Part shown: positions 33,676-53,000 of the stretch, piece after piece
Numbering within the stretch: the stretch's first letter is position 1
Layout of the letters: each line of letters starts with the position of its first letter
NCBI GenBank assembly: GCA_937915565.1
Contig: CALDMH010000108.1
Span: forward strand, 1-57,501
Origin: an uncultured Clostridia bacterium
GTDB taxonomy: Bacteria > Bacillota > Clostridia > Christensenellales > Borkfalkiaceae
Reading direction: 5' to 3'
DNA: 57,501 nucleotides
The notes under the pieces: generated by a model
What the model saw: the letters and a program-made list of their open reading frames with translations, nothing else
Told to the model about the DNA's origin: nothing
Database searches by the model: none
Translations under genes and position numbers: made by a program

Positions 33676-33725
33676 CGGGGCGCAATAAAGTCAAAATTTA
33701 TTAAACGATTGTGCAAGAAACCGTG

Positions 33726-33754
33726 TAGACAGGGCGATTGCAATCGTATATAAT
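33726..33754 (+). promoter_or_regulatory. candidate promoter of the large surface-protein gene
   Basis: TAGACA, a 17-nt spacer, then TATAAT (33749-33754). Confidence 0.45.
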
Positions 33755-33860
33755 TTTAACGTCAATGAGCGATTTGCGCTTGTCGGAATGAAAGAATTTT
33801 CGGCGGGGGCGAAAAAACGGCTCGAAAATTTGTCGGGGAAAACCCGACGCAGGAGGAAAA

Positions 33861-36800: not shown

Positions 36801-37385
36801 GCCGCCGCAGACGTTACGGCGAAGATAGCGGCAATAAATATCGCCGAAGTAAACGACGAAAATTACGCCGCGGCAAAGGCTACCGTAGTTTCCGCAAGAC
36901 AGGATTACGAAGACCTTTCCGACGCCGGTAAAGCGATGGTTACCAACCTCGACGCGCTCAAAGCCGCCGAAGCGAAGGTTAAAGCTTACGAGGACGTTAA
37001 ATCTGCCGCCGACGAAGTTATCGCAAAAATCGCGGCTCTTGAAAAAATAACCGTCACCGACGATAATTACGAAACCGTGAAAGCCGACGTCGTCGCAGCC
37101 AAAGCCGCTTACGAAGCTCTTTCGGAAGCCTCCAAGGCAAGGGTTGATAACTATGAAATTATCGCCTCGGCGGAAAGCAAAATCAATGCTTACGAGGACG
37201 CAAAAGCGGAGGAATCCAATAAACCCACCTCCGAAAAGCCGAACGAATCGCAGAACGACTCCACCGATAGCGGAAGCTCGGGCGGCGGACTTGGTTGCGG
37301 CTCGGCCGTAGGCGCAAGCGGATTAGGCCTTATGGTTCTTCTTGCCGCAGGCGCGGTTGCGATTTTCAAAAAGAAAGAGAATTAA
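33861..37385 (+). CDS. large secreted cell-surface protein (1174 aa) with repeated beta-sandwich-type modules, helical repeats and Cys-containing C-terminal anchor
   Basis: It has a signal peptide ending AYAEE. Four ~200-220-aa modules share a W..W(I/F)(I/T)LK(D/Q) core. A PEPEEPEPQPEEPEELEPE linker is present. Three ~60-aa Ala/Lys/Glu helical repeats carry (E/D)NY..(A/V)KA. The tail reads GGGLGCGSAVGASGLGLMVLLAAGAVAIFKKKEN. Confidence 0.85.
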   Translation: MRKKKLWIVLLCIVAATALCFASLTAYAEEPAEGAETEETLNLALDQTKWNTTTFEAKADGLYAKGTNVSATTKDKIPASATVTTAISGTLAEKDTTWCYAWIVLKQSDPNATVTCNGKNATLSSGNGLIFSWGASHGSESVNEVIDGQSVKMTDTKFVSGFDSWSQYAVNSEITITMTDGPFGTTLDLVFKGGVTNETKTYSYTCENDFSGEGYYGFGYLGGGTVDETHNYVITKATVEEIAVDNDLSHSAANWTTSTGSIVGGENGITATANGNALLKHKLPANSTVTAKITGTAAGTWGNVWFTLKDTRETPDASSSNATAGSYILYRLGGDFNVGQGTIAEVKDGTLLPLNHSIEGASNADSWYVRKQVTEFTFTTEDTETGVKVTVHVKGENCEYEEVIESDNEVLKGEWTLGIGCFVDLAGGNLVIDNVTVKNNDKSEPEKPEPEEPEPQPEEPEELEPEIANLAVSADNFNGGLGNHSGVFGENGITISQTTFSASLVKDVKAGSKIVLDLEGKGETTGWGEAWIILKDVSYPQVIDARQDEKSSFRSLTRGMNYVAFRFGNSYLAGINEVKDGQFTETIITEWAQSDFTAFFKQRVRVVITTEDSDSGVKFNIEFQNLTTGHTLTKEYVSDNVKLKGDYAVNVGTYVGLNAGESIVIRKFGVTETVEKTDRSGANMATDLKYMRNGFNYKAFRYYDGNGLALEQVTKAGFTMYHKVASAQSVTLKYNNTLTSASYGNTYLLLKANDRYVEVPNPNDREINEYNAKSEADPAAAKGDNWILVMFGADGLQRYVCIDGIIEKTNLGDGADNLDVWYWYKQAPSIMLTATDIAETEEDDAHIEVNFTLMGSSGKLTAKSFNVYEEALMGAKYLQVSYFLSTGGNMESDFDFVCLEKLSYMGLDDVVIPEIDVEALNASIASYKAITAENYEAAKATYEAAAAKRAEMNVLQVDKFNAAALAELNKKLEAYLTDKEAAADVTAKIAAINIAEVNDENYAAAKATVVSARQDYEDLSDAGKAMVTNLDALKAAEAKVKAYEDVKSAADEVIAKIAALEKITVTDDNYETVKADVVAAKAAYEALSEASKARVDNYEIIASAESKINAYEDAKAEESNKPTSEKPNESQNDSTDSGSSGGGLGCGSAVGASGLGLMVLLAAGAVAIFKKKEN

Positions 37386-37401
37386 CGGGCGAAGGAAACC
37401 C

Positions 37402-37696
37402 TAGGGATTTCATTTGTCATCACTAACTATTTTTGCGGCGATAAACCGATTTATGCGGCGTTAAACGCCGCTCGTAGTACAGCAAGTACAACTTCGGGCG
37501 TTTGCCTTGCCTAAACGAGCCGCATTGCGGTCGGTTTCTCATCCGCAAAAATGCTTCGCACCGAAAAGAGCGCATTTTTTGATGATTTTTTGCGAACGTG
37601 AGGGTTGCTGTACCGGGCGTACTGCGCCCGAACGGTCGCGGGAAATGGCGAAAAAGACGCCTTTTCGGTAATTAGTGATGGCGAATGGAATCCCTA
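37402..37696. mobile_element. ~295-bp self-complementary element bounded by 28-bp imperfect inverted repeats (MITE-like; alternatively a structured RNA)
   Basis: Positions 37402-37429 pair with 37669-37696: 28 positions, of which 3 are G:U-type on the plus strand and 1 is a mismatch. Nested helices pair 37429-37438 with 37543-37552, 37443-37449 with 37531-37537, and 37453-37459 with 37519-37525. TA dinucleotides sit at both ends of the GGGATT... termini. There is no ORF with coding character. Confidence 0.5.
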
Positions 37697-37716
37697 ACTT
37701 AAATAAAAAATAAGGG

Positions 37717-37756
37717 GGTTGCCGCAAATAAACGGAATAGTTTATTTGCGGCAACC
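37717..37756 (+). terminator. 17-bp perfect hairpin ending 12 nt before the ATG of the SGNH gene
   Basis: Stem GGTTGCCGCAAATAAAC/GTTTATTTGCGGCAACC, loop GGAATA, and only TTT downstream. Confidence 0.55.
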
Positions 37757-37768
37757 TTTCATATCGTT

Positions 37769-39256
37769 ATGAAAAGATTTACATTTTCTGAAAACACGTC
37801 GAAAAGCGAGGCGATTATAAGCTTCGCTCTGCAAATAAATTCGCTTGCGGAAAATCGCGAAAAGGACGACGATTTTCTCGAAGAAAACGAGATTTTTATG
37901 CTTACCGTCGGCGAAAAAGGCAAATTTTCGGCGGAGAACTTTTATCAGAACAAACTCACGATAAGGGCTGTCGGCGAGGAATTATCTCTTCACGGTTACG
38001 CCCCCGATTTTAACAGAACGGGCAACGCCGTGGTTCTTCCGGGCGGGAAAAAGTTAAAAACGAGCGAAAAATACTCGTTTAAAGTCGTTTTAACTAAGCG
38101 CAGAGTTTATATTTACCTTAACGGCGCGCTCGTCGAATCTTACGGAAACGCAAGGGAAACCGTAGACGGTTACGCGTTTTTCGTTCGCAACGGCGAGAAT
38201 ATCGATATAAGCGACGTCGGTTTTACTTCGCGCGACGAAGAGGAGTATCCCACCTCCGAAAAGCTTACGTATTGCGTCGAAAAAGGTCTTTTCGGCGGTT
38301 ATTTGTCTTATGATAAAACCCGCGAAGGTCTTACTTTCAATCGGCTTGACGTGAAAAGTTGTTTCGAGTGTACCACGCGGAATTTTTACGCGTACGATTC
38401 GGGGCTTACGCTCGACGCCGAAACCGACGCGAGCGGGATTAAGCTCGATTTTAAGGTTGTGGATATTCCCGTCGGCAACTGGAATATGCAGTTCGGATTT
38501 GCCGCGGACGGCAGAAGAATCACGCAGCCTATAAAACTCGTAAACAGGGGAGAATACGCTTCCGTAACGATGAACAATCCTTTTAAGGATGGCAAAAGAC
38601 ATCGTTTAACGGTGTTTTTCCCCACGTCCTGCGGCCTTGCCTTAACGCGCGCCGAGTTTTTGAACGCAACCTTTGCCGAAAGAGTGAAAAAGGACGTCCG
38701 CGCTATTTTTATCGGCGACAGCATTACCGAGGGCAGCGAGTGTTTCGATGCTTCGAGGGCTTATCCCAACGCGCTCGCTTTGCATTACGGGCTTGACGCG
38801 CTCAACCAGTCGCTCGGCGGAATGTCTTTCGGCGATTATTGCGCTTCGGGGAATTATCCCGAGCCTTTCGACGTCGCCTTTATAGCCCTCGGAACGAACA
38901 GTTTTTGCGGCGGAACGGGCGATAAGGCGAAAACGCTGAAAACCGTGGCGGAGCAAGCCGAAAAACTTGTGAAAAGGATTAAGGAGAAATTTCCGGATTG
39001 TCGGATATACGGGCTTTTGCCTATTTGGCGTTCGGACGAGGACGGCGTTAATTTTTCGCTTAAAGACACGTCGCGCGCGTTGCGTTCGGTATATTCCCGT
39101 TTAAACGTGAGAATAATAAATTGTCACGATTTCGTTCCCAAGGACTACGGATATTTTTCCGACCCGATTTTTGCGATACACCCAACCTCCGAGGGACACG
39201 ATTTTTACGCCGAGAATCTCATTGCGGCAATAGACAAAAAATACAAAAAAATATAA
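37769..39256 (+). CDS. two-domain protein: N-terminal beta-sandwich-like region + C-terminal SGNH/GDSL hydrolase (carbohydrate esterase-like)
   Basis: SGNH blocks are IFIGDSITEG (block I), LGTNSF (block III) and HPTSEGH (block V) in the C-terminal ~200 aa. No signal peptide and no clear SD sequence, so the start is uncertain. Confidence 0.75.
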   Translation: MKRFTFSENTSKSEAIISFALQINSLAENREKDDDFLEENEIFMLTVGEKGKFSAENFYQNKLTIRAVGEELSLHGYAPDFNRTGNAVVLPGGKKLKTSEKYSFKVVLTKRRVYIYLNGALVESYGNARETVDGYAFFVRNGENIDISDVGFTSRDEEEYPTSEKLTYCVEKGLFGGYLSYDKTREGLTFNRLDVKSCFECTTRNFYAYDSGLTLDAETDASGIKLDFKVVDIPVGNWNMQFGFAADGRRITQPIKLVNRGEYASVTMNNPFKDGKRHRLTVFFPTSCGLALTRAEFLNATFAERVKKDVRAIFIGDSITEGSECFDASRAYPNALALHYGLDALNQSLGGMSFGDYCASGNYPEPFDVAFIALGTNSFCGGTGDKAKTLKTVAEQAEKLVKRIKEKFPDCRIYGLLPIWRSDEDGVNFSLKDTSRALRSVYSRLNVRIINCHDFVPKDYGYFSDPIFAIHPTSEGHDFYAENLIAAIDKKYKKI

Positions 39257-39364
39257 AAAACGGCGTTAAATAAACCGTAAAAGGGCAAAACAGGTCAAAT
39301 ATTGTTAAACACAAAGTCAGCGTATGGTATTTACCGAGCGGGTTTTATAATATAAAATATAGGT

Positions 39365-41221
39365 ATGATAAGAGCAAACGGACAAAAACTGAATATCAGG
39401 CGTGTTTTCGTTTCGGCGCTCGGCGTTTTGCTTATCGTCGGAATGCTGTTTCTCTTTTCCGGTTGTTATTCCGCGGACGTAAACGTCAAGAGCGACGGAA
39501 CGGGCGTAGCCACGATTACCGTAGCCAAATCCGAGGGAGTAACCGCCGATTCCGTTAAGGAAAAAATCGAAAAGGAGATTTATAACGGAGTCGAGCTGGT
39601 ATCGGGCGAGGAAAACAGAATAACGCTTGATAAAATAACCGAAACCGAAAACGCTTTGATAGTAACGGTTTCTTTCAAAAGAATCGGAACGGTGGGCGGC
39701 TTGGGAAAGTTTTATTATAAAAACGCTTCCGAGCTTAAAGCCGACCAGGAACTTCGCGGGTATATTAAAAAACTTTCCAACGGAAAATATCCGCAAATTC
39801 ACAATTACGACGATAGTTTTTACGATTTCGTCGGCAGAAGCACTCGCCCCAAAAAGGAGCTTGCCGTTTTGCCGAAAACGATTGACGGCAAAGAACTTAC
39901 CGTTGACGAATTTATCGGCGAGGACGGAAAGGACAACGCGTACACTCTTGAAAACGACGGAGTTTTCTTCTCGTTCTTTATAGCGGGTTTCGAGGGGCTT
40001 GAAAGCGTAACTTTTAAGCTTAACGGAAAAATCACCGTTATTGCCGGCGACGGCGCGGAAGTTCAGGGTGAGAATACCATAGTCGTAAAACCCTTGAAAA
40101 TCAAAACCGAAAACGTAACGAGAATGGAAAACGGCGAGCCGGTCGTCGTTCAAGGAGAGGAAACGACGTGCTTTTTCGGTTACGCTTATTTCATTCGTCA
40201 AAAGAACAATTTGCCGCTTATTCTCGGAATAATCTGCGGCGCGGTGCTTATAGGCGGAATTCTTGCCGGGATTTTCACGGGATATTTCAAAAAAGTCGTT
40301 AAAGGCCCGAAATTCAGGCAGTTTATAAGGAATTACGATTTATACCTTATGATGTTGCCCGCGTTTATCCTGCTTTTGGTTTTCGTTTACAAGCCGATGC
40401 TCGGCATAACCATAGCTTTTAAAAATTACAAGGCCGAGGACGGAATTTTCGGAAGCGAAACCGTGGGATTGAAAAATTTCATAGACGTGCTTACGCTCCC
40501 GGGTTCGTCGTTCTGGATGCTCGCCAAAAACACCGTTATTCTCGCGCTGTTGAAATTCGTGTTCGGCTTTATCTGCACGATAGGGCTTGCGCTTTTGTTC
40601 AGCTATCTCAAAAACGGCTGGTTCAAAAAAACCGTTCAGACGATAAGCTATTTCCCTTACTTCATAAGCTGGGTAGTCATCTCCGGTATCGCTTGGCTTT
40701 TCCTTGCAACCGATACGGGAATTTTGAATAAAATAGTGGGCTTTTTCGGCGGAAAACCGATAAAATGGTATGAAACGCCCGATTATTGGTACGCAATCTT
40801 AACGTTCACGGCTATGTGGAAAACCACGGGTTACGGAACTATCGTTTACCTTGCGGGAATAACCTCCATAGACCCTGCGCTTTACGAAGCCGCGGTTATC
40901 GACGGGGCGGGCAGATGGAAGCAGTTTTTGTACATAGTTCTCCCGGGGCTTACGCCTATCATCGGCGTTCAGATGATTTTCAGCTTGGGCAACCTCGTCA
41001 GGGACGATTTCGACCAGATTTACACGATGACGGGCGGAGGAAATTCCTATCTTCTCGAAACGACGGAAGTTATCGGCGCGGTCGTGTTCAAAGCAACCGG
41101 AAACGTTGCGAGTTATTCTTCGGCTATGGCTATGAACCTTATGCAAAGTCTGGCGTCGCTCGGGCTTGTTCTCGGCTCAAACGTAGTCATCAAAAAAATG
41201 GGAATGCAATCGTTGTTTTAA
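39365..41221 (+). CDS. ABC sugar-transport permease (LplB/CUT1-type) fused to a ~300-aa N-terminal extracytoplasmic domain
   Basis: The C-terminal ~310 aa look like an LplB-type permease (NYDLYLMMLPAFILLLVFVYKPMLGI..AFKNY; EAA-loop region AAVIDGAGRWKQF). The N-terminus is basic, followed by a TM with an FSGC lipobox-like motif, ~250 aa of soluble sequence, and an extra TM. There is no in-frame stop. Confidence 0.8.
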   Translation: MIRANGQKLNIRRVFVSALGVLLIVGMLFLFSGCYSADVNVKSDGTGVATITVAKSEGVTADSVKEKIEKEIYNGVELVSGEENRITLDKITETENALIVTVSFKRIGTVGGLGKFYYKNASELKADQELRGYIKKLSNGKYPQIHNYDDSFYDFVGRSTRPKKELAVLPKTIDGKELTVDEFIGEDGKDNAYTLENDGVFFSFFIAGFEGLESVTFKLNGKITVIAGDGAEVQGENTIVVKPLKIKTENVTRMENGEPVVVQGEETTCFFGYAYFIRQKNNLPLILGIICGAVLIGGILAGIFTGYFKKVVKGPKFRQFIRNYDLYLMMLPAFILLLVFVYKPMLGITIAFKNYKAEDGIFGSETVGLKNFIDVLTLPGSSFWMLAKNTVILALLKFVFGFICTIGLALLFSYLKNGWFKKTVQTISYFPYFISWVVISGIAWLFLATDTGILNKIVGFFGGKPIKWYETPDYWYAILTFTAMWKTTGYGTIVYLAGITSIDPALYEAAVIDGAGRWKQFLYIVLPGLTPIIGVQMIFSLGNLVRDDFDQIYTMTGGGNSYLLETTEVIGAVVFKATGNVASYSSAMAMNLMQSLASLGLVLGSNVVIKKMGMQSLF

Positions 41222-41234
41222 GGAGGCGTCGGAA

Positions 41235-42113
41235 ATGATAAGGTCAAAAGGCGAAAAAACGTTCGACGCTTTCAACGTCGTTTTTATGGTAATTCTCGCG
41301 GTGATATTCGTTTATCCCGCATTGCTCATAGTGTGCGCCTCGTTCACTTCGGCGGACGCGATAACGAAGTACGGTTATTCCGTTCTGATACGGGAGTTTT
41401 CGCTCTCGTCGTATCACTTCATTTTTCAAACGCAGGGGTTGTTTTTCACCTCGCTTAAAAACTCGGTAATCATCGCCGCAAGCGGAACGGCTTCCGTTGT
41501 GGTTACGGGCGCGCTGTTTGCTTACGCAATTTCGCGCAAGCAGCTTTTGTTCAAAAAATTCTTCGTGATGTATCTCGTTATAACGCTTCTTTTTTCTGGC
41601 GGAACGATTTCGCATTATATGAACATCGATTCGTTGGGGCTTATGAACACCCGCTTGGCGATAATCCTGCCTTCGGCGGTGAACGCCTGGTACATCATTC
41701 TTATGCGTAATTTCTTCGAGAACATTCCTGCGGGGCTTTGCGAATCGGCTCAACTCGAAGGCGCGGGCAACGTGACGATACTTTTTAAAATCATCATACC
41801 GTTGTCCTTCCCGATAATCGCCACGATAATCCTGTTTTCTTCGGTAGACCTCTGGAACAACTGGATAGGCGCGCAGCTTTTCATCGACAGAGCGCACGAG
41901 CATCTCTGGCCGATACAAGCTCTCGTAAGGCAGCTCGAAACCGACTTTAAGTCGATTGTCAGTTCCATCGGCGGCGGCACGAGCCTCGGCTTGAATTCCG
42001 AGGGAATAAAAGCGGCGGCGGTTGTGGTTTCCACACTTCCCATAGTTATCCTTTACCCCTTCCTGCAAAGATTTTTCATTTCGGGAATGTTGGTCGGCGG
42101 AGTTAAGGAATAA
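41235..42113 (+). CDS. ABC sugar-transport permease (LplC-type)
   Basis: Six-TM MalG-like layout with an EAA loop (ESAQLEGAGNVTILFKIIIP). Confidence 0.88.
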   Translation: MIRSKGEKTFDAFNVVFMVILAVIFVYPALLIVCASFTSADAITKYGYSVLIREFSLSSYHFIFQTQGLFFTSLKNSVIIAASGTASVVVTGALFAYAISRKQLLFKKFFVMYLVITLLFSGGTISHYMNIDSLGLMNTRLAIILPSAVNAWYIILMRNFFENIPAGLCESAQLEGAGNVTILFKIIIPLSFPIIATIILFSSVDLWNNWIGAQLFIDRAHEHLWPIQALVRQLETDFKSIVSSIGGGTSLGLNSEGIKAAAVVVSTLPIVILYPFLQRFFISGMLVGGVKE

Positions 42114-42224
42114 ATCGGTTTCAGCCTTTTCGGCGGACGAAACGCATAGCGATTCCGCACCGAAATACGGCAAAAAATAAAAAACGAAAATTAACAAACG
42201 GCAAATCGTTTGTAGGAGGAGAAT

Positions 42225-43913
42225 ATGAAAAAATTATTAAGCATTTTACTTTGCTTTGCAATGTGTTTCGGCCTTGCCGCGTGCGGAGCAGGCAACAACT
42301 CGCAAACTCCGGAATCGACCGGCGGTTCTACGGGCGGCGAAAGTTCGAGGGTTTCTTTTGAAGACGCGGATAAAACGAAAATTACCATTTACGTCGACGA
42401 ATCCAACGTTTACGGAAGTTACGTTGCGGGTTCGGACGAAGCCTTCGTTAAAAAGACGATAGAGAAGAAATTTTACGAAGATACCGGTTACGCCGTGGAC
42501 TTCAATATTCAGATTTGCACCCACGCCACGTTCAACACGCAGTTTTCGGGCGTTATGACGACGGGAAGATGGGACGCCGCCGTTTCTTACCTCGGTCAGG
42601 CAGGACTTGACGAAACCGCGCTCAATCAGGATATAGCTCTCGATTTGAGCGACCTTCTCGATTCCGACGGCGAGCATATTTACGAAGCGATTGACGAAGA
42701 GGCTATGTACGCCACGACGCTTCTCGACGGAACGGTCGTAGGCATTCCTTCCGTTTGTAACACGAAAACGAAAGGTATCCTTTTAAGAACCGATTTGATG
42801 GAAAAAGTGGGTTACACCGTTGAACCCGGCCATAACGACGACCTCGGTAAGACTACCGACAAAGCGGGCGACAAGAAAAAAACTCTCGTAACGCTCGACG
42901 ATTTCACGGATATGCTCGAACGCCTTAAAGTTCAAAACGTATGCGCCAATCCGCTTTCCGGCAACGCTTACGACATAGAGTACACCATAACCGCCGGCGC
43001 GCTTAATTGCCTCGGTTATCAGTGCAAAGACGTTATTTACAACACCGACGGTTCGGTTAAGGAAGTAGTTCCCGGCTGGCTTTCGGAAAATTACGGCGAC
43101 GTTCTGGAAACTCTTTATTACTGGCAGAGCAGAGGTCTTTGGGAAGCCAACAACACCGTAAAGACCACCGAGCAGAGAATAACCGACCTTACTAACGGTA
43201 AATCCTGCGTTTACTGCGTAGACCCCAACGTAATTTCTCTTATAGACGTTGCCCGCAGAGTTAGTTCCGCAAAGCCCGAGGCGAAATTCGCCGTTATCGG
43301 ACCTTTGGACGGCGTTGACGAAAACGGAAACCGCATCGAAGGAAGCGGCGCGTTTGCCGAAACGTCGAGAACGACCGACTGCCTTATCATAAACAAAAAA
43401 TCGCAAAACGCGAAAATAGTCGTGGCTTATCTTAACTGGATGTATTCTTCGGTTGAAAACTACGAACTTTGCGCTTACGGAATAAAAGGCACTCACTGGG
43501 TTGAAGCGGGCGATAAATTCTACGCTTATCCGGAAGGAAAAGCCGACAGATATTTGTCCAAACCGCCGTATTCGGGCGTATTTATGCTTCTTCACAACGA
43601 CGAATTCTCTTATAGAATTTACGACGATTACACCGCCGAAGAGAAAGGGTGGATTAACGTCGTTGAAAACGCAAAGACGATGAAGAACGAAACTGACGGA
43701 ATGTTGTTCTACAATATGTCCGCCGCAATGGCAAACGCTTTCCAGACGGCCGAAAACGATTTCTATCCCAACGTAGCGTTAAAGGCTTGGGACGGAAGCG
43801 TAGACCCCGCCACGTCTTATCCCGCGGGAGTTACGTCTTACAGAAACACCGCAAGCGAATATATCGATTGGCTCACCACGCAGTATAAACTTTACGTGGC
43901 GAAGAGAGTTTAA
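42225..43913 (+). CDS. extracellular solute-binding lipoprotein (LplA-type, 562 aa)
   Basis: Lipobox LAACG, a Ser/Gly linker, a size typical of family-1 oligosaccharide-binding proteins, and an AGGAGG RBS. Confidence 0.85.
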   Translation: MKKLLSILLCFAMCFGLAACGAGNNSQTPESTGGSTGGESSRVSFEDADKTKITIYVDESNVYGSYVAGSDEAFVKKTIEKKFYEDTGYAVDFNIQICTHATFNTQFSGVMTTGRWDAAVSYLGQAGLDETALNQDIALDLSDLLDSDGEHIYEAIDEEAMYATTLLDGTVVGIPSVCNTKTKGILLRTDLMEKVGYTVEPGHNDDLGKTTDKAGDKKKTLVTLDDFTDMLERLKVQNVCANPLSGNAYDIEYTITAGALNCLGYQCKDVIYNTDGSVKEVVPGWLSENYGDVLETLYYWQSRGLWEANNTVKTTEQRITDLTNGKSCVYCVDPNVISLIDVARRVSSAKPEAKFAVIGPLDGVDENGNRIEGSGAFAETSRTTDCLIINKKSQNAKIVVAYLNWMYSSVENYELCAYGIKGTHWVEAGDKFYAYPEGKADRYLSKPPYSGVFMLLHNDEFSYRIYDDYTAEEKGWINVVENAKTMKNETDGMLFYNMSAAMANAFQTAENDFYPNVALKAWDGSVDPATSYPAGVTSYRNTASEYIDWLTTQYKLYVAKRV

Positions 43914-43930
43914 AATAAAGGGGTAAAAAA

Positions 43931-45292
43931 ATGAAAAAAGGATTGAAATGGATATTTGCCGCAGCGGCTCTCACGGTTGCCGTTTCCTCGCTCGCAGTTC
44001 CCGCAAAGCAGGCCTTTGCGGAAGAGCAGGAGGGTTATTCGGTGGAGATGACCGAGGACGAAAACCTTGCGGAAAACAAGTGGGACTGGGCAACCGATAA
44101 GGTCGGCGCGGCGAACACTTATTTCACTGCCGGCAAAGGCTTCACCGTTCAGGATTTCAACCGCGGCGGCGGAGCGTTCGGCGTTTATAAAACCAATCGT
44201 TTAAACGAGTTTAAATACTCGATGTACGCAAATCTCAACCTCACCTATCCTTCGGCGAAAGGGTTTTCGGGGTACAACTTCGATTACTCCAACTTCTATC
44301 TTTCGTTTTTGATAGACGCCGACCCCGTCGTTCCCTCGAATTCCTGCCCGTGGAGCGGCAACGCCGCTTACGTTTGTCTTTCTTTTGAGGAAAGATACGA
44401 CGCGGCCACCGGAACCGAGAACGACATAACCTCGTTTTACGTCAACGAGTGCTGGAACAGGCACGGCGACGAGAGAGCTATCGTAAAAGACGTGAGAGAC
44501 GTCGATTTCAACGACGGAAAATTCCACTGGTACGAACTCGAAGTTAAAAACTTTAAAGATACGAAAACTATGCCGAACGGCTCTGCTACTACCGTTACGG
44601 GAAAGAGAATTAAATTCTTCTTCGACGGCGAAGAGAAGATGAGTTACGACCTCGTTGACGGCGAAAGGGCAACCGCATCCGCCGGCGGCGACAGAAGGTA
44701 CGTAAACTTCACCGCTTTGGACGGTTATCTCGGCTATTGGACGGATACGGATTTCCCCGTAGGCGCGCTTAAAGATAAAACCGATTGCTTCGTGGAAATT
44801 CAGAAGGTTAAAATCGTAGACCTCTCAACGGGCGTGTCTTTCAAAAAATGCGCCGCTCCCGAATTTGAAATCGAGGAGCTCGACTGGTCGCCCTCCGAAT
44901 GCGAAGTCGGCGACGAAATAGAGCTTAAACTTTCCAAGCTTTTCGCTTACGAAGGCGACGAAACGCTTGCTTACGAAATCACCTGCAACGGCGAGCCGAT
45001 AGGCGAAATCCGCAACGGATTCTGGGTTTACACCCCCGATAAGGCGGGCGAGTTCGATATTGACTTTAAGGCGATAGCCGGCTCGAAAACCAAAATCGCT
45101 TACAGAACGCTTCGCGTTTCGCAGGGCGAACAACCCCCTGCGCAGGAGAGCGGTAAGCCTGCGGACGGCAGTGGCAGCGATTCTCAGGCAGGTTTGACAG
45201 GCGGCGGCTGCAACGGTTCGCTTGCGTTGAATTTCGCGTTTTTGCCGCTTATCGTCGCGGCGGGCGCGGTTGCGAAAAAATTTAAGAAATAA
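43931..45292 (+). CDS. secreted surface protein (453 aa) with Cys-containing C-terminal anchor, function unknown
   Basis: It has a signal peptide ending AFAEE, a jelly-roll-like N-terminal region and an Ig-like C-terminal region. The tail reads GLTGGGCNGSLALNFAFLPLIVAAGAVAKKFKK. Confidence 0.8.
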   Translation: MKKGLKWIFAAAALTVAVSSLAVPAKQAFAEEQEGYSVEMTEDENLAENKWDWATDKVGAANTYFTAGKGFTVQDFNRGGGAFGVYKTNRLNEFKYSMYANLNLTYPSAKGFSGYNFDYSNFYLSFLIDADPVVPSNSCPWSGNAAYVCLSFEERYDAATGTENDITSFYVNECWNRHGDERAIVKDVRDVDFNDGKFHWYELEVKNFKDTKTMPNGSATTVTGKRIKFFFDGEEKMSYDLVDGERATASAGGDRRYVNFTALDGYLGYWTDTDFPVGALKDKTDCFVEIQKVKIVDLSTGVSFKKCAAPEFEIEELDWSPSECEVGDEIELKLSKLFAYEGDETLAYEITCNGEPIGEIRNGFWVYTPDKAGEFDIDFKAIAGSKTKIAYRTLRVSQGEQPPAQESGKPADGSGSDSQAGLTGGGCNGSLALNFAFLPLIVAAGAVAKKFKK

Positions 45293-45299
45293 CGTGTGA

Positions 45300-45335
45300 G
45301 AAGTTGCGTCCGTTTTGATGAACGAACGCAACTTC
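45300..45335 (+). other. intra-operon 10-bp stem-loop without T-run
   Basis: Stem GAAGTTGCGT/ACGCAACTTC with a 16-nt loop, 8 nt after the stop codon of the surface-protein gene. Confidence 0.5.
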
Positions 45336-45390
45336 CGTAGGGAGAACAATGAAAAATCAACGGTTTTTTCGTTGGTCTCGGGAGGAATAA

Positions 45391-46947
45391 ATGAAAAAGA
45401 AAATATTGTGCGCGGTGTTCGCCGCGTTTATGCTCGCGGCGGCGGGGTGCGGAACGGCCTCCGGCTCTGTGGAACAGGGAAGCAATTCCCTGCAAAGCGA
45501 ATCTTCTTCCAAAAGCGGGGAAGAATTGGAGAGCGTAGAAGTGAAAAAGGGATATAAAGCATACGAGGTTTCGGCCTCGAACGGTAAAAAAACCACGGGC
45601 TTCGGTGCGCAGTTCGACACGCTCATCGTCGAACCGCAAAACTCTCTTTCGGACGAGGACTGGGTGAAATATCAGGTAAACGTTATAAAAGAAACGAACC
45701 TTCAATGCGTAAGGGTAAGGTTTTTCCCCGAATGTTACGAGAGAGGAAACGATAACGACGACCCCGACGTTTTCGATTATTCGAGTCCGAACGTGGATTT
45801 TGAAAGCGCAGAGATGAAGCAGTATTACAAACTTTTCGACGCTTTCGAGGAGAACGACGTCGCGGTTGATTTAAGCTGGTACGGTTGCAGAACCACGTTC
45901 AAATCACAGGACGGCAAGATTAACGGCAGCTGGCTCGGCGGAGTTTACGGGCAGGACGGCGTGAACGCTTGGAGTGTTATGCCGAGGCTCGGCGCAAATC
46001 CGGAGGACGAATTTGCGGAATCCGTTTCGGCTTGCCTTAAATATCTTTTCGAGGTGAAGAAATACACCTGTATCAAGGAGTTCAGCATATTCCCCGAACC
46101 CGACGGAATGACCACCGAAGAAGGGCAGTTCGCAAGGATAGCTTCCAAGGTTTTGAAAAGGCTCGAAAAGGACGGCATACGCGATAAAATCGTGTTCTCC
46201 GGCCCTGCGGATTACGGCAACAACCCGTCGAGATTCGACGAGATGTATTTATCGAAAACCAAGTTCGATAAAGCCACTTCGTCCGTTTACAAATGGGATA
46301 TAGAAGGCTACAACGAGGATATGCTCGAATTTGCAAAGGGCTATTCCGCCGTTACGGATAAATACGGAATTCCTTGGAGCATAGCCGAAAGCGGAACGAA
46401 AAACTTCATAGACCCCGTTCACAACAAGGACAGCGAAACTTACGACAGAGCGCTTTATATGGCTCGTTTTATGATAAATATGATGAACGGCGGTTGCACG
46501 GGCATCAAATATTTCGTGTTCTCCGATTGTTATTACGACGGCGCGCTCAATAAACTCGGGTTGTTCTGTTTCAGCCACGAAAACTGGGCGGCAAAACCGG
46601 TGTTCTATTCCTGGTCGCTCATAATGAAGTACACGGAAAGAGAAAGCGAAATTTTCCCCGTCGAAACCGAAGGCGACGACGTGAATATGGTTGCGTTTAA
46701 GATGCCGGACGGAAGTTGGAGTTATATGATGGCCAACAACGGAGAGGAAAACGTTAAAATCGCCGTTGTGAACAAGCGTGCCGACAGGCCGGGCGATATG
46801 AACGTCTATAAACTCACCGAGGCGAGAATGCCGGAAAACAGAGAACTTAAAACCATTGCGAAGAGCGAAACCGTAAACGCCGAAAACGGAGTCGTTTACG
46901 TCACTCTTCCCGCAAGGTCGTTCGTGGTTATATCGGATAAGAAATGA
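45391..46947 (+). CDS. lipoprotein, putative clan GH-A-like (beta/alpha)8 glycoside hydrolase, family unresolved (paralog 1)
   Basis: Lipobox AAAGCG and a Ser-rich linker. Motifs GFGAQFDT, a candidate acid/base in FPEPDG and a candidate nucleophile in WSIAESG. A C-terminal beta-sandwich-like region is present. It is paralogous to the next gene. Confidence 0.45.
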   Translation: MKKKILCAVFAAFMLAAAGCGTASGSVEQGSNSLQSESSSKSGEELESVEVKKGYKAYEVSASNGKKTTGFGAQFDTLIVEPQNSLSDEDWVKYQVNVIKETNLQCVRVRFFPECYERGNDNDDPDVFDYSSPNVDFESAEMKQYYKLFDAFEENDVAVDLSWYGCRTTFKSQDGKINGSWLGGVYGQDGVNAWSVMPRLGANPEDEFAESVSACLKYLFEVKKYTCIKEFSIFPEPDGMTTEEGQFARIASKVLKRLEKDGIRDKIVFSGPADYGNNPSRFDEMYLSKTKFDKATSSVYKWDIEGYNEDMLEFAKGYSAVTDKYGIPWSIAESGTKNFIDPVHNKDSETYDRALYMARFMINMMNGGCTGIKYFVFSDCYYDGALNKLGLFCFSHENWAAKPVFYSWSLIMKYTERESEIFPVETEGDDVNMVAFKMPDGSWSYMMANNGEENVKIAVVNKRADRPGDMNVYKLTEARMPENRELKTIAKSETVNAENGVVYVTLPARSFVVISDKK

Positions 46948-48536
46948 TGAAAAAATTATTATGTATTTTAACGGCGGCGTTTATGCTCGTTCTGGCGTGC
47001 GCCTGCGGCAATAATCCGGCGGATAATTCAAACTCCGGCGGCGGAAGTTCGTCGGGTAACGGCGAATCGTCTTCCGAAATCACCGTAACCGGCGGTTACA
47101 CCGTTCACGAAATCAAAGAAGAAAGCGGTTACGAAGTGGGCGGCTACGGCGCGCAAATCGACACCGACCAGTTTATGCCGTTCAACAACCTTACGGACGA
47201 AGAGAGAACGATGCTCAAAACCCGTATAAGCGAAATGAACGTTCAGTACACCCGTATAAAGATGTTCGGCGAATATTTCGAGATGGCGAACGACAACGAC
47301 GACCCGAACGTGTTCGATTACGACGCCGCTGGCGTGTTCTTCGATTCCACCGAAATGAAGGCGTTATACGAAGTTCTCGATCTTTGCGAAGAAAACGGAA
47401 TAAAGGTCGATTTAAGCTGGTATAACTGCAATTCCACGTTCAAGGCGTACGACCAGACCGACGAGAACGGCAAGCTTTATCAGGGAACGTGGATGGGATA
47501 TTCGTTCGACGAAGTGAACACCTGGTGCACCGCGCCGAGAATGACCGACGATTTCGACGGTTACGCCGAGCAAGCCGAAAACATTGCGGTTTGCCTCGAT
47601 TATCTCATCAATAAGAAAAAATACACCTGCATTTACGGTTTCAGTTTTATTGCGGAGGGCTTTTATTCTCCCAAAGGAATCGTTTGGGACGAATACGTCA
47701 AATGCTGCGACGTGATAAACAAAAGGCTCATAAAGGACGGCCTGAAAGATAAAGTGATTTTTATCGGCACCTCCAACGAATCCAAAAATATGAAGATATT
47801 CGAGGAGTTGCAAACGCCGCTCAAAGATATTTTCGATATAGGCGGATTCGGGTTGTATCACTGGGACCTTTCGGATTTAAAGACGAATCGTTACACGCAA
47901 GCGGATTATTTTGAGAACCTCAAAGCCGTGTGCGACCGCCTCGGTTACGACGGTTTTGCCGTTCCGGAATTCTGCACGCACAACAGGCACGCGCTCAACG
48001 CCACCACTTGGGACGACGTTGAGGATTACGACGCCGCCTTGTGGCACGCGACGCTCGTTATCGACGCCGCGAAGTACGGTTTCACCACGCTCAATCACTA
48101 TATTATCGGCGACACGTTCTTCACGAATTCTTACGTTCACACGATGGGACTTTGGACGTATCGCGATAACGGCTGGAAGGCTCACCCCGCGTATTACGTC
48201 TGGGCTATGATTTGCAAATACACCGACGTCGGCGCAAAGGTTTACAACGTCGATTTCGACAGAGATGAAGACGTGATGACTGCGGCTTTCCTCTTGCCGG
48301 ACGGTGGCTGGACGTATCTTGCCGTTAATTTCGGCGACGAAACGGAAAAAGTCGCGTTTGTGAACAAAAACGGTAACAAGCCGGGCAAGGTTAATCTCTA
48401 TCGCTTAACCGAGAGCGCGATTCCCGAAAACAGAGTTTGCGAAACTCCCGATAAATACGGCGAAGAGGACGGCTCGGACGGAGTCGTTTACTTAAAAGCT
48501 TCGCCGATGAGTTTAACGGTCGTTTCGACGAGATAA
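46944..48536 (+). CDS. lipoprotein, putative glycoside hydrolase (paralog 2)
   Basis: Lipobox LACACG. It is collinear with paralog 1 (NDNDDPNVFDY, VDLSWYNC, KKYTCI, ... VNLYRLTE). The start overlaps the previous stop codon (ATGATG). Confidence 0.45.
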   Translation: MMKKLLCILTAAFMLVLACACGNNPADNSNSGGGSSSGNGESSSEITVTGGYTVHEIKEESGYEVGGYGAQIDTDQFMPFNNLTDEERTMLKTRISEMNVQYTRIKMFGEYFEMANDNDDPNVFDYDAAGVFFDSTEMKALYEVLDLCEENGIKVDLSWYNCNSTFKAYDQTDENGKLYQGTWMGYSFDEVNTWCTAPRMTDDFDGYAEQAENIAVCLDYLINKKKYTCIYGFSFIAEGFYSPKGIVWDEYVKCCDVINKRLIKDGLKDKVIFIGTSNESKNMKIFEELQTPLKDIFDIGGFGLYHWDLSDLKTNRYTQADYFENLKAVCDRLGYDGFAVPEFCTHNRHALNATTWDDVEDYDAALWHATLVIDAAKYGFTTLNHYIIGDTFFTNSYVHTMGLWTYRDNGWKAHPAYYVWAMICKYTDVGAKVYNVDFDRDEDVMTAAFLLPDGGWTYLAVNFGDETEKVAFVNKNGNKPGKVNLYRLTESAIPENRVCETPDKYGEEDGSDGVVYLKASPMSLTVVSTR

Positions 48537-48549
48537 AAAGGAGAACGTT

Positions 48550-50481
48550 ATGAAAAGAGGGAAAGTTATATTGACGGCGGCTTCGTTGGTCGCGGCGGCG
48601 GCTCTTGCCGTCGGCGCGCCGCTCGGGGCTTCCCGCGCAAATGCGGAACAAATCGCCAACACGCAAAAACACGCAAGCAATCTTTCAATATCGCCTGCGG
48701 TTATAACGGAAGTTAAAAACGCGGCGCATCTCGACGAAATGCTCGCCGCGCCCTTCGCTCCGTCCACGCTTATTTACAGGGTGAACGACGAACTGCAAAT
48801 CGTCGACGGCGAAAATTCTTACGCTTTTGCGGATATGTTTACGAAAATGCGCAAAAAAACGGTCGCCGTGGTAAACCTCACTTCCACGGTTCAGGCCGAC
48901 AAGCTTAAAGAGTTTATAACGACGAAGAAAATCGAAGATATTTCCGTTATGAGCAAGGATATTTCGGTGCTTACCTATGCGAGAAATCTTATGCCGAGAG
49001 TGAGAGGCGTTGCCGATTTTTCGGAAAGAGAACTCGGAAACAGCCTTGCGGACGAAGTTGAAGAATCGCACAAGGCGGGCGCGAACGTCATCGTTTTAAG
49101 CGCGGAGCAATCGACGAGGGAAACGGTTTCGTATTTCCAGTCGGTCGTGACCACGGTGTGGACTTACGGCGGCGAATTAAAAACCGCTTACGACGTTGCG
49201 AAGCTCGTTTCAACCGAAACTTACGGAATAATCGCCGATAATTACGGATTGTGTTATTCGGCTTATTCTCTTTACGAAAAAGGTTCGCTCGGCAGGTCGT
49301 TTTATAACATTGCGCACAGGGGCTTGCCCCACACCGAGGCGGAGAACTCTTTGGAGGGCTTCGTTGCCGCAGTGGAGGCGGGCGCTACGCACATAGAAAT
49401 CGACGTTAAGGTCACCGCGGATAACGAACTCGTCATAATGCACGACAACGAACTTTCCCGCACGACGAACGGAAGCGGAAATATCGAATCGATGACCACG
49501 GAGCAACTCCGCAATATAAAAATCACAAAAACTTATGACGGAAACGACGTCGCGCCCGTAAATATTCCTACTTTGGACGAGGTGTTCGATTTTCTTGAAA
49601 CCAACGACGCGCGTTTGTTCCTCGAAATAAAAACCGAAAAGGACAATTTCTGCGGACTTCTTAAAAGCAAACTTGAAAAACGCAATAAGCTTCGCGGAAG
49701 AATCGCCGTAATAACGTTCAGCACGAAGCAACTGAAAAATATGAGAGCGATTTTGCCCGAACTTCCGCTCGTTTCGCTCAACGCCGTGGCTTACGACGAT
49801 ATGGGCAACGGCGCGCTGGGCGACCTTGCGCAAAACAATATGGTTTTCTCAAATGCTTTCGATTACGACACTCTTGCCAACAGAAACCTTAAAAGTCGCG
49901 GATATATGGCGTTTTCCTGGACGTTCGACACGAAGGTTGCCGCCGCGGGAGTCGCCGTTAAGGGTTGCCTCGGCATAACCAACAACGCCGCGGACCAAGT
50001 GGGCAAATTCACCCGCAAAATAGAGGCGAGAAGCGGAGGAGAAATCGTCAGGAGCAACGATTATAAAGGCAAAAACGTTATCGTCGAAGCCGTTTCTTAC
50101 GACGGCGAACGCAATGCCGTAACGGGGAAAATCGCGTTTTACGAGGAAACGGCGGACGGCATAAACGCTATAATTTCTTATAACGACGGCAATTATACGG
50201 TTTATTCCTCGCCCGTTTATTTAAGTATCAGGGAAGAAGACGCCAACGAAAGCGACGTGGAAAGCGTTGAAAGCGGCGGAAAGGAATCCTCTTCCGGAAG
50301 CGGAAATCAATCCGACGCGGGCGAAAGTGTCGAAGGCGGCTCGAACGATTCGGGCTCGGCTTCCGGCGGCACGACTTCCGGCGGCGGATGCGGCGGCGGA
50401 GTGAACGGAGCGGGCTTCTTCGGCTTAATGGCGGCGTTGGCCGTTGCCGGAATAATTTGCGGAAAGAAAATTCGCAAATAA
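48550..50481 (+). CDS. secreted surface protein with glycerophosphodiester phosphodiesterase (GDPD) domain and Cys-containing C-terminal anchor
   Basis: It has a signal peptide. GDPD motifs are IAHRG.P..EAENS, E.GATHIEIDV and VIMHD. The tail reads TTSGGGCGGGVNGAGFFGLMAALAVAGIICGKKIRK. Confidence 0.8.
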   Translation: MKRGKVILTAASLVAAAALAVGAPLGASRANAEQIANTQKHASNLSISPAVITEVKNAAHLDEMLAAPFAPSTLIYRVNDELQIVDGENSYAFADMFTKMRKKTVAVVNLTSTVQADKLKEFITTKKIEDISVMSKDISVLTYARNLMPRVRGVADFSERELGNSLADEVEESHKAGANVIVLSAEQSTRETVSYFQSVVTTVWTYGGELKTAYDVAKLVSTETYGIIADNYGLCYSAYSLYEKGSLGRSFYNIAHRGLPHTEAENSLEGFVAAVEAGATHIEIDVKVTADNELVIMHDNELSRTTNGSGNIESMTTEQLRNIKITKTYDGNDVAPVNIPTLDEVFDFLETNDARLFLEIKTEKDNFCGLLKSKLEKRNKLRGRIAVITFSTKQLKNMRAILPELPLVSLNAVAYDDMGNGALGDLAQNNMVFSNAFDYDTLANRNLKSRGYMAFSWTFDTKVAAAGVAVKGCLGITNNAADQVGKFTRKIEARSGGEIVRSNDYKGKNVIVEAVSYDGERNAVTGKIAFYEETADGINAIISYNDGNYTVYSSPVYLSIREEDANESDVESVESGGKESSSGSGNQSDAGESVEGGSNDSGSASGGTTSGGGCGGGVNGAGFFGLMAALAVAGIICGKKIRK

Positions 50482-50497
50482 TTGCAAATAATAACTT

Positions 50498-51862: not shown

Positions 51863-51878
51863 ATCGTTAAAATTTGTA

Positions 51879-51906
51879 TTGTTAAAATAAAAAATAAATT
51901 TATAAT
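51879..51906 (+). promoter_or_regulatory. candidate internal promoter upstream of the oxidoreductase cassette
   Basis: TTGTTA, a 16-nt spacer, then TATAAT (51901-51906). Confidence 0.4.
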
Positions 51907-51924
51907 AGTAACGTGGAGAAAAAT

Positions 51925-52995: not shown

Positions 52996-53000
52996 ACGTT

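Follow-up and report, generated by a model that had tools for sequence, protein, structure and literature searches.

Four Cys-containing tripartite C-terminal signals are known to pair with CPBP proteases (10.1101/2023.06.07.544157). MYXO-CTERM (TIGR03901), the tag associated with the myxosortase MrtX in Myxococcota, has a generic GCGC signature and a short spacer, and lipidation of its Cys followed by intramembrane cleavage has been proposed (PMC11980579; 10.1101/2023.06.07.544157); the cleavage by MrtX is Cys-dependent (PMC11980579). Synerg-CTERM (TIGR04564), associated with MrtS in Synergistales, opens with a Ser/Gly-rich cluster that has a single invariant Cys at its end; a helix follows, and basic residues form the tail (10.1101/2023.06.07.544157, section 15). 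Firmicu-CTERM (TIGR04145), a C-terminal sorting domain of Firmicutes, is the target of exosortase G and belongs to a dedicated cassette of XrtG and glycosyltransferases (PMC12854382). A signal peptide combined with a C-terminal helix is accepted as plain anchoring of glycosidases in Gram-positive gut bacteria, e.g. SiaBb2 of Bifidobacterium bifidum (PMC5626965). Here we compare with these systems the C-termini of three secreted proteins encoded in a 57,501-nucleotide stretch of DNA from an uncultured Clostridia bacterium (the window). We give roughly even odds (probability about 0.5) to the reading that all three tails represent one recurrent tag for anchoring or sorting in gut Clostridia, whose Cys is lipidated and whose helix is then removed.

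All features described below lie on the + strand. A glycan-utilisation gene cluster (31243..54913) encloses the three tagged genes and is arranged in the order GH78 rhamnosidase, 1174-aa protein, GDSL esterase, two ABC permeases, 562-aa lipoprotein, 453-aa protein, two paralogous lipoproteins, GDPD protein and GH32, ending with two Gfo/Idh/MocA oxidoreductases and a sugar-isomerase-like TIM barrel. The first tagged gene (33861..37385) encodes a 1174-aa secreted surface protein with a signal peptide at aa 1-28, three β-rich modules and helical repeats, while the second (43931..45292) encodes a 453-aa secreted protein, for which a low-confidence model suggests a β-sandwich and an Ig-like domain after the signal peptide; the Pfam scan identified no domain in either of them. 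The third (48550..50481) encodes a 643-aa secreted protein of the glycerophosphodiester-phosphodiesterase family (Pfam GDPD at aa 256-472). The signal peptides were assigned by reading the sequence: all three N-termini display a basic n-region, a hydrophobic core and a putative AxA-type cleavage site typical of Sec-type signal peptides (predicted cleavage between TAYA and EE, QAFA and EE, and RANA and EQ in the 1174-, 453- and 643-aa proteins, respectively), and inspection revealed no lipobox at any of these N-termini.

The three C-termini share one plan, namely a S/G-rich linker, the signature G-C-x-[SG]-[SGA]-[VLIA], a helix of ~20 residues and a K/R cluster. In the 1174-aa protein (…DSTDSGSSGGGLG-C1146-GSAVGASGLGLMVLLAAGAVAIF-KKKEN) a low-complexity E/S/K/N/D/G linker (aa 1112-1144; 37194..37292) precedes the tag (37293..37385), which comprises G1145-C1146-GSAV (Cys codon 37296-37298), the helix GASGLGLMVLLAAGAVAIF, KKKEN and the stop codon. 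The 453-aa protein (…SGSDSQAGLTGGG-C427-NGSLALNFAFLPLIVAAGAVA-KKFKK) has a low-complexity linker that is hypervariable among its homologues (aa 397-425; 45119..45205), and its tag (45206..45292) comprises G426-C427-NGSL (Cys codon 45209-45211), the helix ALNFAFLPLIVAAGAVA, KKFKK and the stop codon. In the GDPD protein (…SGSASGGTTSGGG-C614-GGGVNGAGFFGLMAALAVAGIICG-KKIRK) the low-complexity region starts at about aa 570, aa 595-612 (50332..50385) form the last part of a S/G/D-rich linker, and the tag (50386..50481) comprises G613-C614-GGGV (Cys codon 50389-50391), the helix NGAGFFGLMAALAVAGIICG, KKIRK and the stop codon. BLASTP comparison of the three proteins aligned essentially the tails alone, with an additional weak stretch of 22% identity in low-complexity or helical sequence of the 1174-aa and 643-aa proteins; the tail DNA of the three genes is not a recent copy. 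A six-frame scan of the window found no other single-pass secreted ORF with a hydrophobic C-terminal segment and a basic end. The earlier note had described three secreted proteins with shared Cys-containing tails, laid out like tripartite sorting signals and devoid of LPXTG; the ORFs, the signal peptides and all four elements of the layout are indeed present, LPXTG is absent from the three tails, and the occurrence of one tag on three unrelated proteins within the window is the many-to-one pattern characteristic of sorting signals.

The tails of the window are short, Gly-rich and only 23-45% identical to each other in pairwise comparisons, as would suit a mere coincidence, i.e. low-complexity Gly-rich linkers that happen to stand ahead of ordinary helices. 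Against this, the 41 window proteins (17,126 aa) contain the pattern G-C-x-[GSA]-[GSA] 4 times, whereas shuffling predicts 1.0; three of these copies are positioned 28-31 residues from the C-terminus, and the fourth is an N-terminal lipobox. Homologues were picked by full-length similarity to the 453-aa protein (P0001-P0008, n=8) and to the GDPD protein (P0010-P0030, n=21), and the Gly-Cys is kept in 28 of these 29 (8/8 and 20/21) at identities down to 30%, despite the freely varying neighboring linker; elsewhere in these proteins Cys accounts for just 1.1% of residues. Among the homologues of the 453-aa protein (44-89% identity) the Cys is the sole invariant column of the tail (C427 in 9/9 sequences) and the linker before it differs in length and composition, while in the GDPD-family homologues (30-89% identity) the G-C is located 25-40 residues from the end in 20/21. 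Finally, of the 36 ORFs in the examined loci that end in a helix followed by basic residues, 19 were flagged for the G-C motif, a count to which the GDPD homologue from locus L010 (…DGGCASAL…) adds one, as its motif is present though outside the scan window; the remaining ORFs are permeases or spurious. The invariance of the Cys among the homologues, the shuffling count and the ORF scan effectively refute the coincidence, which we consider extremely improbable.

The signature was derived from 36 tails. Relative to the Cys, G occupies position -1 in 33/36 and one of S, G or A occupies position +2 in 34/36; S predominates at +3, and V, L, I or A stands at +4. The first basic residue follows the Cys after a median of 21.5 residues, and the terminal basic cluster contains a median of 4 Lys/Arg (2-6 in the tag as defined here). 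The Gly-Cys of the motif GGGC-[GN]-G derived from the earlier note is conserved, but the remainder has to be reformulated: the run of Gly ahead of the Cys is peculiar to the genome of the window (homologues read …EEKGC, …NHGC or …STGC), and what is conserved after the Cys is x-[SG]-[SGA]-[VLIA] followed by 3-5 small residues. The Cys-side half of the helix contains 64% small or helix-breaking residues, compared to 42% in the inner half, and such a composition is typical of intramembrane-protease substrates.

The tag with the invariant Gly-Cys was found at the end of at least 8 unrelated protein families, in agreement with the proposal of a shared targeting signal rather than a shared domain. 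The syntenic counterparts of the 1174-aa protein in loci L002, L003, L004 and L007 possess it, L002-L004 encode two or three tagged proteins each, and the bearers identified by synteny have 880-1386 aa; further bearers include a 1835-aa protein, a 1300-aa Big_3 protein, a 347-aa protein and several small or fragmentary proteins. The tag-bearing contigs range from 34 to 57% GC (uncultured Clostridia, Christensenellaceae, human gut). In an exhaustive search with a tail profile, all 7 new matches reached to within 4 residues of their own C-terminus; among 1.84 billion proteins the profile, which is too short to gauge the frequency of the tag, reported 11 at E-value ≤0.001, one of them false. The tag is a conserved, transferable C-terminal module and not part of a shared domain.

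None of the sorting-signal models in NCBIfam r20 describes the tag. The models of LPXTG, NPXTG, MYXO-CTERM and Synerg-CTERM matched weakly the helix and the basic tail alone, and the weak matches scatter across many models for C-terminal sorting signals, in keeping with a generic likeness in these two elements. The earlier note had named two findings that together would speak against its proposal, a lack of matching models and the confinement of the tails to these three proteins; the former was observed and the latter was not, as many other proteins carry the tag. The Firmicutes-specific model mentioned there is Firmicu-CTERM. This model did not match the three tails of the window at E-value ≤10 and is not among the matches listed for the other tails (25 of 42 families in one of the listings), and, unlike for Firmicu-CTERM, no XrtG-type cassette is evident around the tagged genes, nor did Pfam reveal any exosortase (PF09721) in the window.

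In sequence style the nearest of the known signals is Synerg-CTERM, with which the tag shares the Ser/Gly-rich cluster closing in a single invariant Cys, the helix and the basic tail. However, TIGR04564 matched only 4/34 tails (best E-value 0.22), and its score in a separate comparison was 11.6 bits vs the cut-off of 22.5, over the helix only (profile positions 7-26). In Synerg-CTERM the helix follows the Cys without a spacer, where the tag has x-[SG]-[SGA]-[VLIA] and the small residues; moreover, it is confined to diderm Synergistales and associated with the type II secretion system. MYXO-CTERM likewise has three parts, its Gly-rich signature containing an invariant Cys and being followed by a short spacer, a helix and a basic tail; it also shares with the tag the disordered linker ahead of it and the presence on many unrelated surface proteins. 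However, TIGR03901 matched only 3/34 tails, with a best E-value of 0.05, which does not amount to a model match. The tag differs from it by the single Cys in G-C-x-[SG]-S, by a Lys-rich rather than Arg-rich tail and by the lack of a CPBP partner in the sequence examined here. It differs also in its hosts, which are Clostridia and which, from their lineage, we take to be monoderm, so that export would require neither an outer-membrane nor a type II secretion step.

With respect to the LPXTG-type signals, it is very unlikely that the tails are diverged cell-wall sorting signals of non-canonical sortase or exosortase substrates, by which the proteins would become attached to peptidoglycan or to a polymer of the wall. 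The models LPXTG_anchor (TIGR01167), Rumino_NPXTG, GVDTG, LAETG and LAVTG do give weak scores to the helix with its KKKED/KKKEN-type endings, and one of eight further tails scored 18.1 bits with TIGR01167, above the curated cut-off of 15.9 bits, via helix and tail alone. All other LPXTG-type scores are below the cut-off (TIGR01167: 11.6 bits for the 1174-aa tail; the 453- and 643-aa tails unmatched at E-value ≤10), and the alignments extend from about profile positions 5-14 (8-12 for TIGR01167) to the end, omitting the signature region and never including the pentapeptide, in whose place the tag has a Cys. Besides, in no tail is the helix preceded by LPXTG or by another xPxTG-type pentapeptide, NPXTG and xxxTG motifs being likewise absent, the XrtG target Firmicu-CTERM did not match the window tails, and neither sortase nor exosortase was seen in any locus.

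The earlier note was right that the window encodes no processing enzyme of the expected kinds: Pfam analysis of 41 selected coding ORFs (≥180 aa) gave no hit to any of four families, namely sortases, exosortases, rhomboids and CPBP proteases, and the sole intramembrane protease is a housekeeping RseP-type M50 (6037-7455). The same four families were likewise not seen in L014 (Pfam) or among the called neighbor genes (precomputed Pfam), and a crude motif scan for CPBP and LPXTG in 337 kb of partly redundant sequence, the sole scan that covers the uncalled neighbor loci, gave no candidate. This absence from the examined sequence counts against a processed tag. So do the Lys-rich rather than Arg-rich tails, and the fact that the known Cys-type signals belong to diderm bacteria (with type II secretion) or archaea and not to monoderm Firmicutes.

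A GlyGly-CTERM-like signal cut by a rhomboid protease of the rhombosortase type at the small-residue stretch after the Cys, instead of lipidation and a CPBP protease, is unlikely. Rhomboids are common in Firmicutes, an N-out, C-in topology and a helix that begins with G/A/S-rich sequence are in keeping with rhomboid substrates, and GG(G) precedes the Cys in the tails of the window itself. However, among the homologues Gly-Gly is not conserved whereas the Cys is, TIGR03501 (GlyGly-CTERM) is not among the matches listed, a GlyGly-CTERM protein-family model (SVAGG) matched just 1/34 tails, and weakly, and no rhomboid gene was found in the window or the called neighbor genes.

A serious rival is a plain, unprocessed type I membrane anchor, in which the helix is a permanent stop-transfer that is never removed, and the Gly-Cys serves for S-acylation without cleavage, for a thioether or disulfide bond to a partner, or for packing at the interface; we regard this as quite possible, at less than even odds. 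A signal peptide, a C-terminal helix and a positive-inside tail are enough for anchoring, as accepted for SiaBb2 (see above), no processing enzyme was found in any examined sequence, and P0030, the lone Cys-less GDPD homologue, has an ordinary I/V/L helix (26% small residues) and apparently works with it. Yet hydrophobicity alone would do for such an anchor, whereas Gly-Cys is almost completely conserved among the homologues and G-C-x-[SG]-S-[VLI] recurs on unrelated proteins. The Cys-side half of the helix is, besides, unusually rich in small or helix-breaking residues. Extracellular disulfides, in turn, are unlikely in strict anaerobes.

The tag is best read as belonging to the Cys-type tripartite class and as anchoring proteins to the membrane; its Cys is probably modified, and its helix may be removed by an enzyme encoded elsewhere. 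It may be a Gram-positive counterpart of the myxobacterial cysteine-type sorting signals. The proteins would be exported by Sec and their N-terminal signal peptides cleaved. By topology rules and gene context, the C-terminal helix would then act as a stop-transfer with the K/R tail in the cytoplasm, and a flexible tether would hold the enzyme or binding domain at the external side of the cytoplasmic membrane, beside the ABC importer of the locus. This would place the invariant Gly-Cys exactly at the membrane-water interface, where we propose that the thiol is lipidated. Relative to the N-terminal lipoproteins that this locus also encodes (…LAAC-GAGNNS…, …AAGC-GTASGS…), the tag would be arranged as a mirror image, with helix-L-A-[AG]-C-S/G-linker in the lipoproteins vs S/G-linker-G-C-x-G-S-L-helix in the tag. 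As in lipoproteins with the lipobox L-[AS]-[GA]-C (processed by Lgt/Lsp), the Cys would be located at the outer membrane interface, with small residues between it and the helix core and a S/G-rich tether to the mature domain, but here it is followed by a C-terminal helix of N-out, C-in orientation; the question of whether Lgt could act on such a geometry has likewise been raised for MYXO-CTERM (PMC11980579). In a last, speculative step modeled on the working model of MYXO-CTERM and myxosortase, an intramembrane protease encoded elsewhere would cut off the helix, yielding a C-terminally lipid-anchored protein. We tentatively suggest, with less than even confidence, that presumably monoderm gut Clostridia practise Cys-dependent C-terminal sorting, with G-C-x-G-S thiol-lipidated and the helix clipped by a dedicated protease, which may be CPBP/myxosortase-like or of another type. 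If true, such "C-terminal lipoproteins" would represent a route of surface display not described in Gram-positive bacteria, and one that tethers glycan-degrading enzymes next to their own importer. The gene order of the glycan cluster in the window is identical in loci L007-L009 from human-gut metagenomes.

The window is an entire metagenomic contig of 57,501 bp, the same length as the longest contig recorded for P0009, a protein identical to the 643-aa one. Housekeeping genes (rpsB, tsf, pyrH, frr, uppS, cdsA, dxr, an RseP-type M50 protease, formate-tetrahydrofolate ligase and engA) lie in its first part, and carbohydrate-utilisation genes extend from ~26 kb to 57 kb. One co-directional cluster contains all three ORFs with the Cys-bearing tail, in the order GH78 rhamnosidase, 1174-aa protein (33861-37385, + strand), GDSL esterase, two ABC permeases, 562-aa lipoprotein, 453-aa protein (43931-45292, +), two paralogous lipoproteins, 643-aa GDPD protein (48550-50481, +), GH32, two Gfo/Idh/MocA oxidoreductases and a sugar-isomerase-like TIM barrel. 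The earlier note had described the three proteins as secreted and ending in the same architecture, and this description holds: Sec/SPI-type signal peptides can be read from the sequence of each (…AYA/EE, …AFA/EE, …ANA/EQ), and each has all four C-terminal elements, namely a low-complexity S/G/D/E/N/P linker, Gly-Cys with small residues after it, an A/L/G-rich helix and a KK-rich end. The Cys is C1146 in the 1174-aa protein (codon 37296-37298), C427 in the 453-aa protein (codon 45209-45211) and C614 in the 643-aa protein (codon 50389-50391). No further single-pass secreted ORF with a C-terminal helix was found in the window. Among its 41 proteins the pattern G-C-x-[GSA]-[GSA] occurs 4 times (1.0 expected by shuffling), three times at 28-31 residues from a C-terminus and once as an N-terminal lipobox. 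BLASTP comparison of the three proteins gave alignments essentially confined to the tails; recent duplication of the tails at the DNA level was rejected.

The GDPD domain is the only Pfam match on the three tagged proteins. For the 453-aa protein, exact look-up found no identical record, the AlphaFold model is poor (mean pLDDT 62) and Foldseek reported only generic beta-sandwich/Ig matches, with TM-scores <=0.28 relative to the query; because of the poor model and the generic matches we assign no function to it. In the 1174-aa protein, three ~65-aa helical repeats (36600-37190, +; …ENYEAAKATYEAA…, …ENYAAAKATVVSA…, …DNYETVKADVVAA…) precede the linker and are themselves preceded by three beta-rich modules, neither modules nor repeats having a Pfam match.

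Homologues of the 453-aa protein and of the GDPD family were gathered by full-length similarity, so that both sets are free of selection for the tails. The Cys is kept in 8/8 homologues of the 453-aa protein (44-89% identity), in which it is the sole invariant column of the tail, the linker before it varying in length and composition. In the GDPD family (30-89% identity), 20 of 21 homologues terminate in a G-C-x-[SGA]-[SGA] motif, then a helix and then a K/R cluster, and their Cys is 25-40 residues from the end. P0030 alone departs from this, with an ordinary I/V/L helix and without the Cys. Outside the tail, Cys makes up 1.1% of residues in the homologues. A subgroup of the GDPD homologues (P0018-P0020) exhibits a variant tag, GLIIGC[AS]VGG, with the Cys within the hydrophobic stretch, and the Cys-less P0030 could act as a natural control.

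Syntenic loci from GTDB genomes, whose hosts are uncultured Clostridia or Clostridiales and one Christensenellaceae MAG, encode 2-3 tagged proteins each. Tag-bearing MAGs include UQHL01 (UMGS285), JAAWAB01, JAZNDO01, GCA_947630775.1 and GCA_054269895.1, alongside the source assembly ERZ27300221. In the syntenic loci and the window, 36 ORFs have a C-terminal helix plus a basic end, and the G-C motif was flagged in 19 of them; the GDPD homologue of one related locus (L010, …DGGCASAL…) adds one, its motif being present though missed by the scan. The ORFs with such an end that lack G-C are polytopic permeases or spurious. Further tagged proteins in other loci include an 1835-aa protein in the metagenomic locus L014 and a 1300-aa Big_3 protein, and the contigs that host the tag range from 34.5% to 57% GC, several of them from human-gut samples. 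The proposal of a shared targeting or anchoring signal is borne out, and we put at above 0.85 the probability that the anchoring tag is genuine, conserved and modular and that its Cys is functional. The gene for the 1835-aa protein (L014:4622-10129) is upstream, at a distance of ~6 kb, of a serine recombinase gene, after which comes a replication-initiator-like gene (L014:16195-19502); given these neighbours, this copy may be on or beside a mobile element.

The signature of the tag, computed over 36 distinct tails with positions relative to the Cys (36/36), comprises G at -1 (33/36), a variable residue (G, K, S, N) at +1, S, G or A at +2 (34/36), mostly S at +3, V, L, I or A at +4 and small residues at +5 to +8, after which comes the hydrophobic core. 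The first basic residue follows the Cys at a median of 21.5 residues, and the terminal cluster has 2-6 K/R. Small or helix-breaking residues constitute 64% of the helix half adjoining the Cys, compared to 42% of the inner half and 26% of the P0030 helix.

The HMM comparison that the earlier note had proposed revealed no NCBIfam model that describes the tails. In release 20, two of the window's three tails have no match and the third matches only the helix part of LPXTG_anchor (11.6 bits, cut-off 15.9). The Firmicutes-specific model mentioned there corresponds to Firmicu-CTERM, an exosortase G target (PMC12854382), which is absent from the matches to the window's tails. Weak matches from 34 tails are distributed among a wide range of C-terminal sorting models, those listed including LPXTG_anchor (8), Rumino_NPXTG (8), Synerg-CTERM (4, best E 0.22), MYXO-CTERM (3) and PGF-, Loki-, Heimdall- and GVDTG-type models; tabulated tail by tail, the alignments cover only the helix and basic end, and all but one are under cut-off. 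Full-text literature searches turned up no account of a C-terminal signal of the Cys type in Clostridia. Judged by its sequence, the tag is an instance of no catalogued signal. It does share its architecture with the Cys-type signals, of which four are known, each paired with a CPBP-family intramembrane protease (10.1101/2023.06.07.544157). Closest in style are Synerg-CTERM, with an S/G cluster ending in one Cys as in the tag, and MYXO-CTERM, with a Gly-Cys-rich signature; the tag differs in the residues after the Cys, in its Lys-rich tail and in the phylum of its hosts, and there would be no outer-membrane step in the presumably monoderm Clostridia. Cleavage of MYXO-CTERM by MrtX has been demonstrated and is Cys-dependent, and lipidation by an Lgt-like enzyme before this cleavage has been proposed (PMC11980579).

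The tagged proteins would in all probability be exported by Sec and halted by the C-terminal helix as a stop-transfer sequence, leaving the K/R cluster intracellular; a flexible linker would thus tether the catalytic or binding domains at the cell surface, beside the ABC importer of the same locus. The conservation of Gly-Cys suggests that it is functionally required at the interface. We speculate that the thiol could be lipidated and the helix removed, because the tag is the mirror image of the lipoproteins of the same locus (S/G-linker-GC-x-GS-L-helix versus helix-LAAC-S/G-linker), because the Cys-side half of the helix is rich in small and helix-breaking residues, and because processing is presumed for each of the four Cys-type signals known. 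Against such processing, no gene for a sortase, exosortase, CPBP protease or rhomboid is present in the window, where Pfam confirmed the earlier impression, in L014 or among the called genes of the neighbour loci; 337 kb of partly redundant sequence, scanned crudely for motifs, likewise revealed no candidate processing enzyme; and anchoring by a plain C-terminal helix is accepted for Gram-positive gut bacteria (PMC5626965). The odds between processing and a plain, unprocessed anchor are roughly even. Of the earlier interpretation, the shared anchoring signal stands, and the processed sorting signal is left as speculation. Hedgehog- or intein-like autoprocessing at Gly-Cys was rejected, as the Cys is followed only by a helix and no Hint-type domain. 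The window's own RseP (M50) is an unlikely protease for the tag, since it belongs to the uppS-cdsA-dxr-rseP operon, a housekeeping one, and the helix orientation that site-2 proteases prefer is opposite to that of the tag.

A word-indexed search with the three-tail alignment gave no match, and a metagenome scan with three near-identical tails returned two loci only (L014 and L015). An exhaustive search of 1.84 billion representative proteins with an 11-tail profile yielded only 11 matches at E<=0.001, the top one false, and hence shows the C-terminal placement of the tag but says nothing on its abundance. This false positive (P0032), unrelated to the tag, is 1533 aa long and carries 14 tandem repeats in which TSGCDSVVALNL occurs. 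The search added seven further proteins, each matched <=4 residues from its C-terminus, among them a 347-aa secreted protein and several fragments with a common …GGCKSSVAAGAA…AVALKKKED. One profile match of 85 aa (P0037, L019:25-282) combines a classical N-terminal lipobox (…GLVAC) with the C-terminal G-C tag; from these motifs both of its ends would be tethered, and a mere ~45 low-complexity residues separate them. The contigs of P0037 and of another match, P0039, are 1-1.6 kb long and uninformative as to context.

Sortase/LPXTG, N-terminal lipoproteins, wall-binding modules or plain helices are the usual explanations of surface display in Gram-positive bacteria. To these modes is added a C-terminal tag, conserved and Cys-bearing, that the large extracellular enzymes of glycan-utilisation loci carry in abundant yet uncultured Clostridia of the human gut, Christensenellaceae-related lineages among them. 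Should the tag be processed, the recently recognised sorting of the Cys type (myxosortase class) would reach hosts that have neither an outer membrane nor type II secretion, lipidation and cleavage would be separable from outer-membrane transport, and a missing enzyme would be implied; demonstration of a cognate enzyme or of C-terminal lipidation in these hosts would raise the importance of the finding. Even if unprocessed, the tag is a marker for surface-proteome prediction in these organisms and could seed a new HMM for genome annotation.

Upstream of the cluster, a 501-aa Wzy_C (O-antigen-ligase-like) membrane protein precedes a GT-B glycosyltransferase that matches Glyco_tran_28_C and MGDG_synth weakly (12353-15005, +), and it is conceivable that this pair acts in glycosylation of the Ser-rich linkers. 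Within the cluster, the 562-aa lipoprotein (42225-43913, +; no Pfam match at E<=0.01) occupies the solute-binding-protein position of the ABC operon. The two paralogous lipoproteins of 518 and 530 aa (45391-46947 and 46944-48536, +) are 36% identical, have no Pfam match and are kept as a pair, each of ~514 aa, in the syntenic human-gut loci L007-L009; probably they act on or bind glycans and belong to uncharacterised proteins of this kind. One of the ABC permeases (618 aa, 39365-41221, +; BPD_transp_1 at aa 406-546) has an N-terminal extension of ~300 aa that starts with a lipobox-like LFSGC (aa 30-34), so that the permease appears to have a fused domain that is extracytoplasmic and possibly lipidated; this fusion is kept in five related loci (L002-L005 and L007, 602-637 aa).
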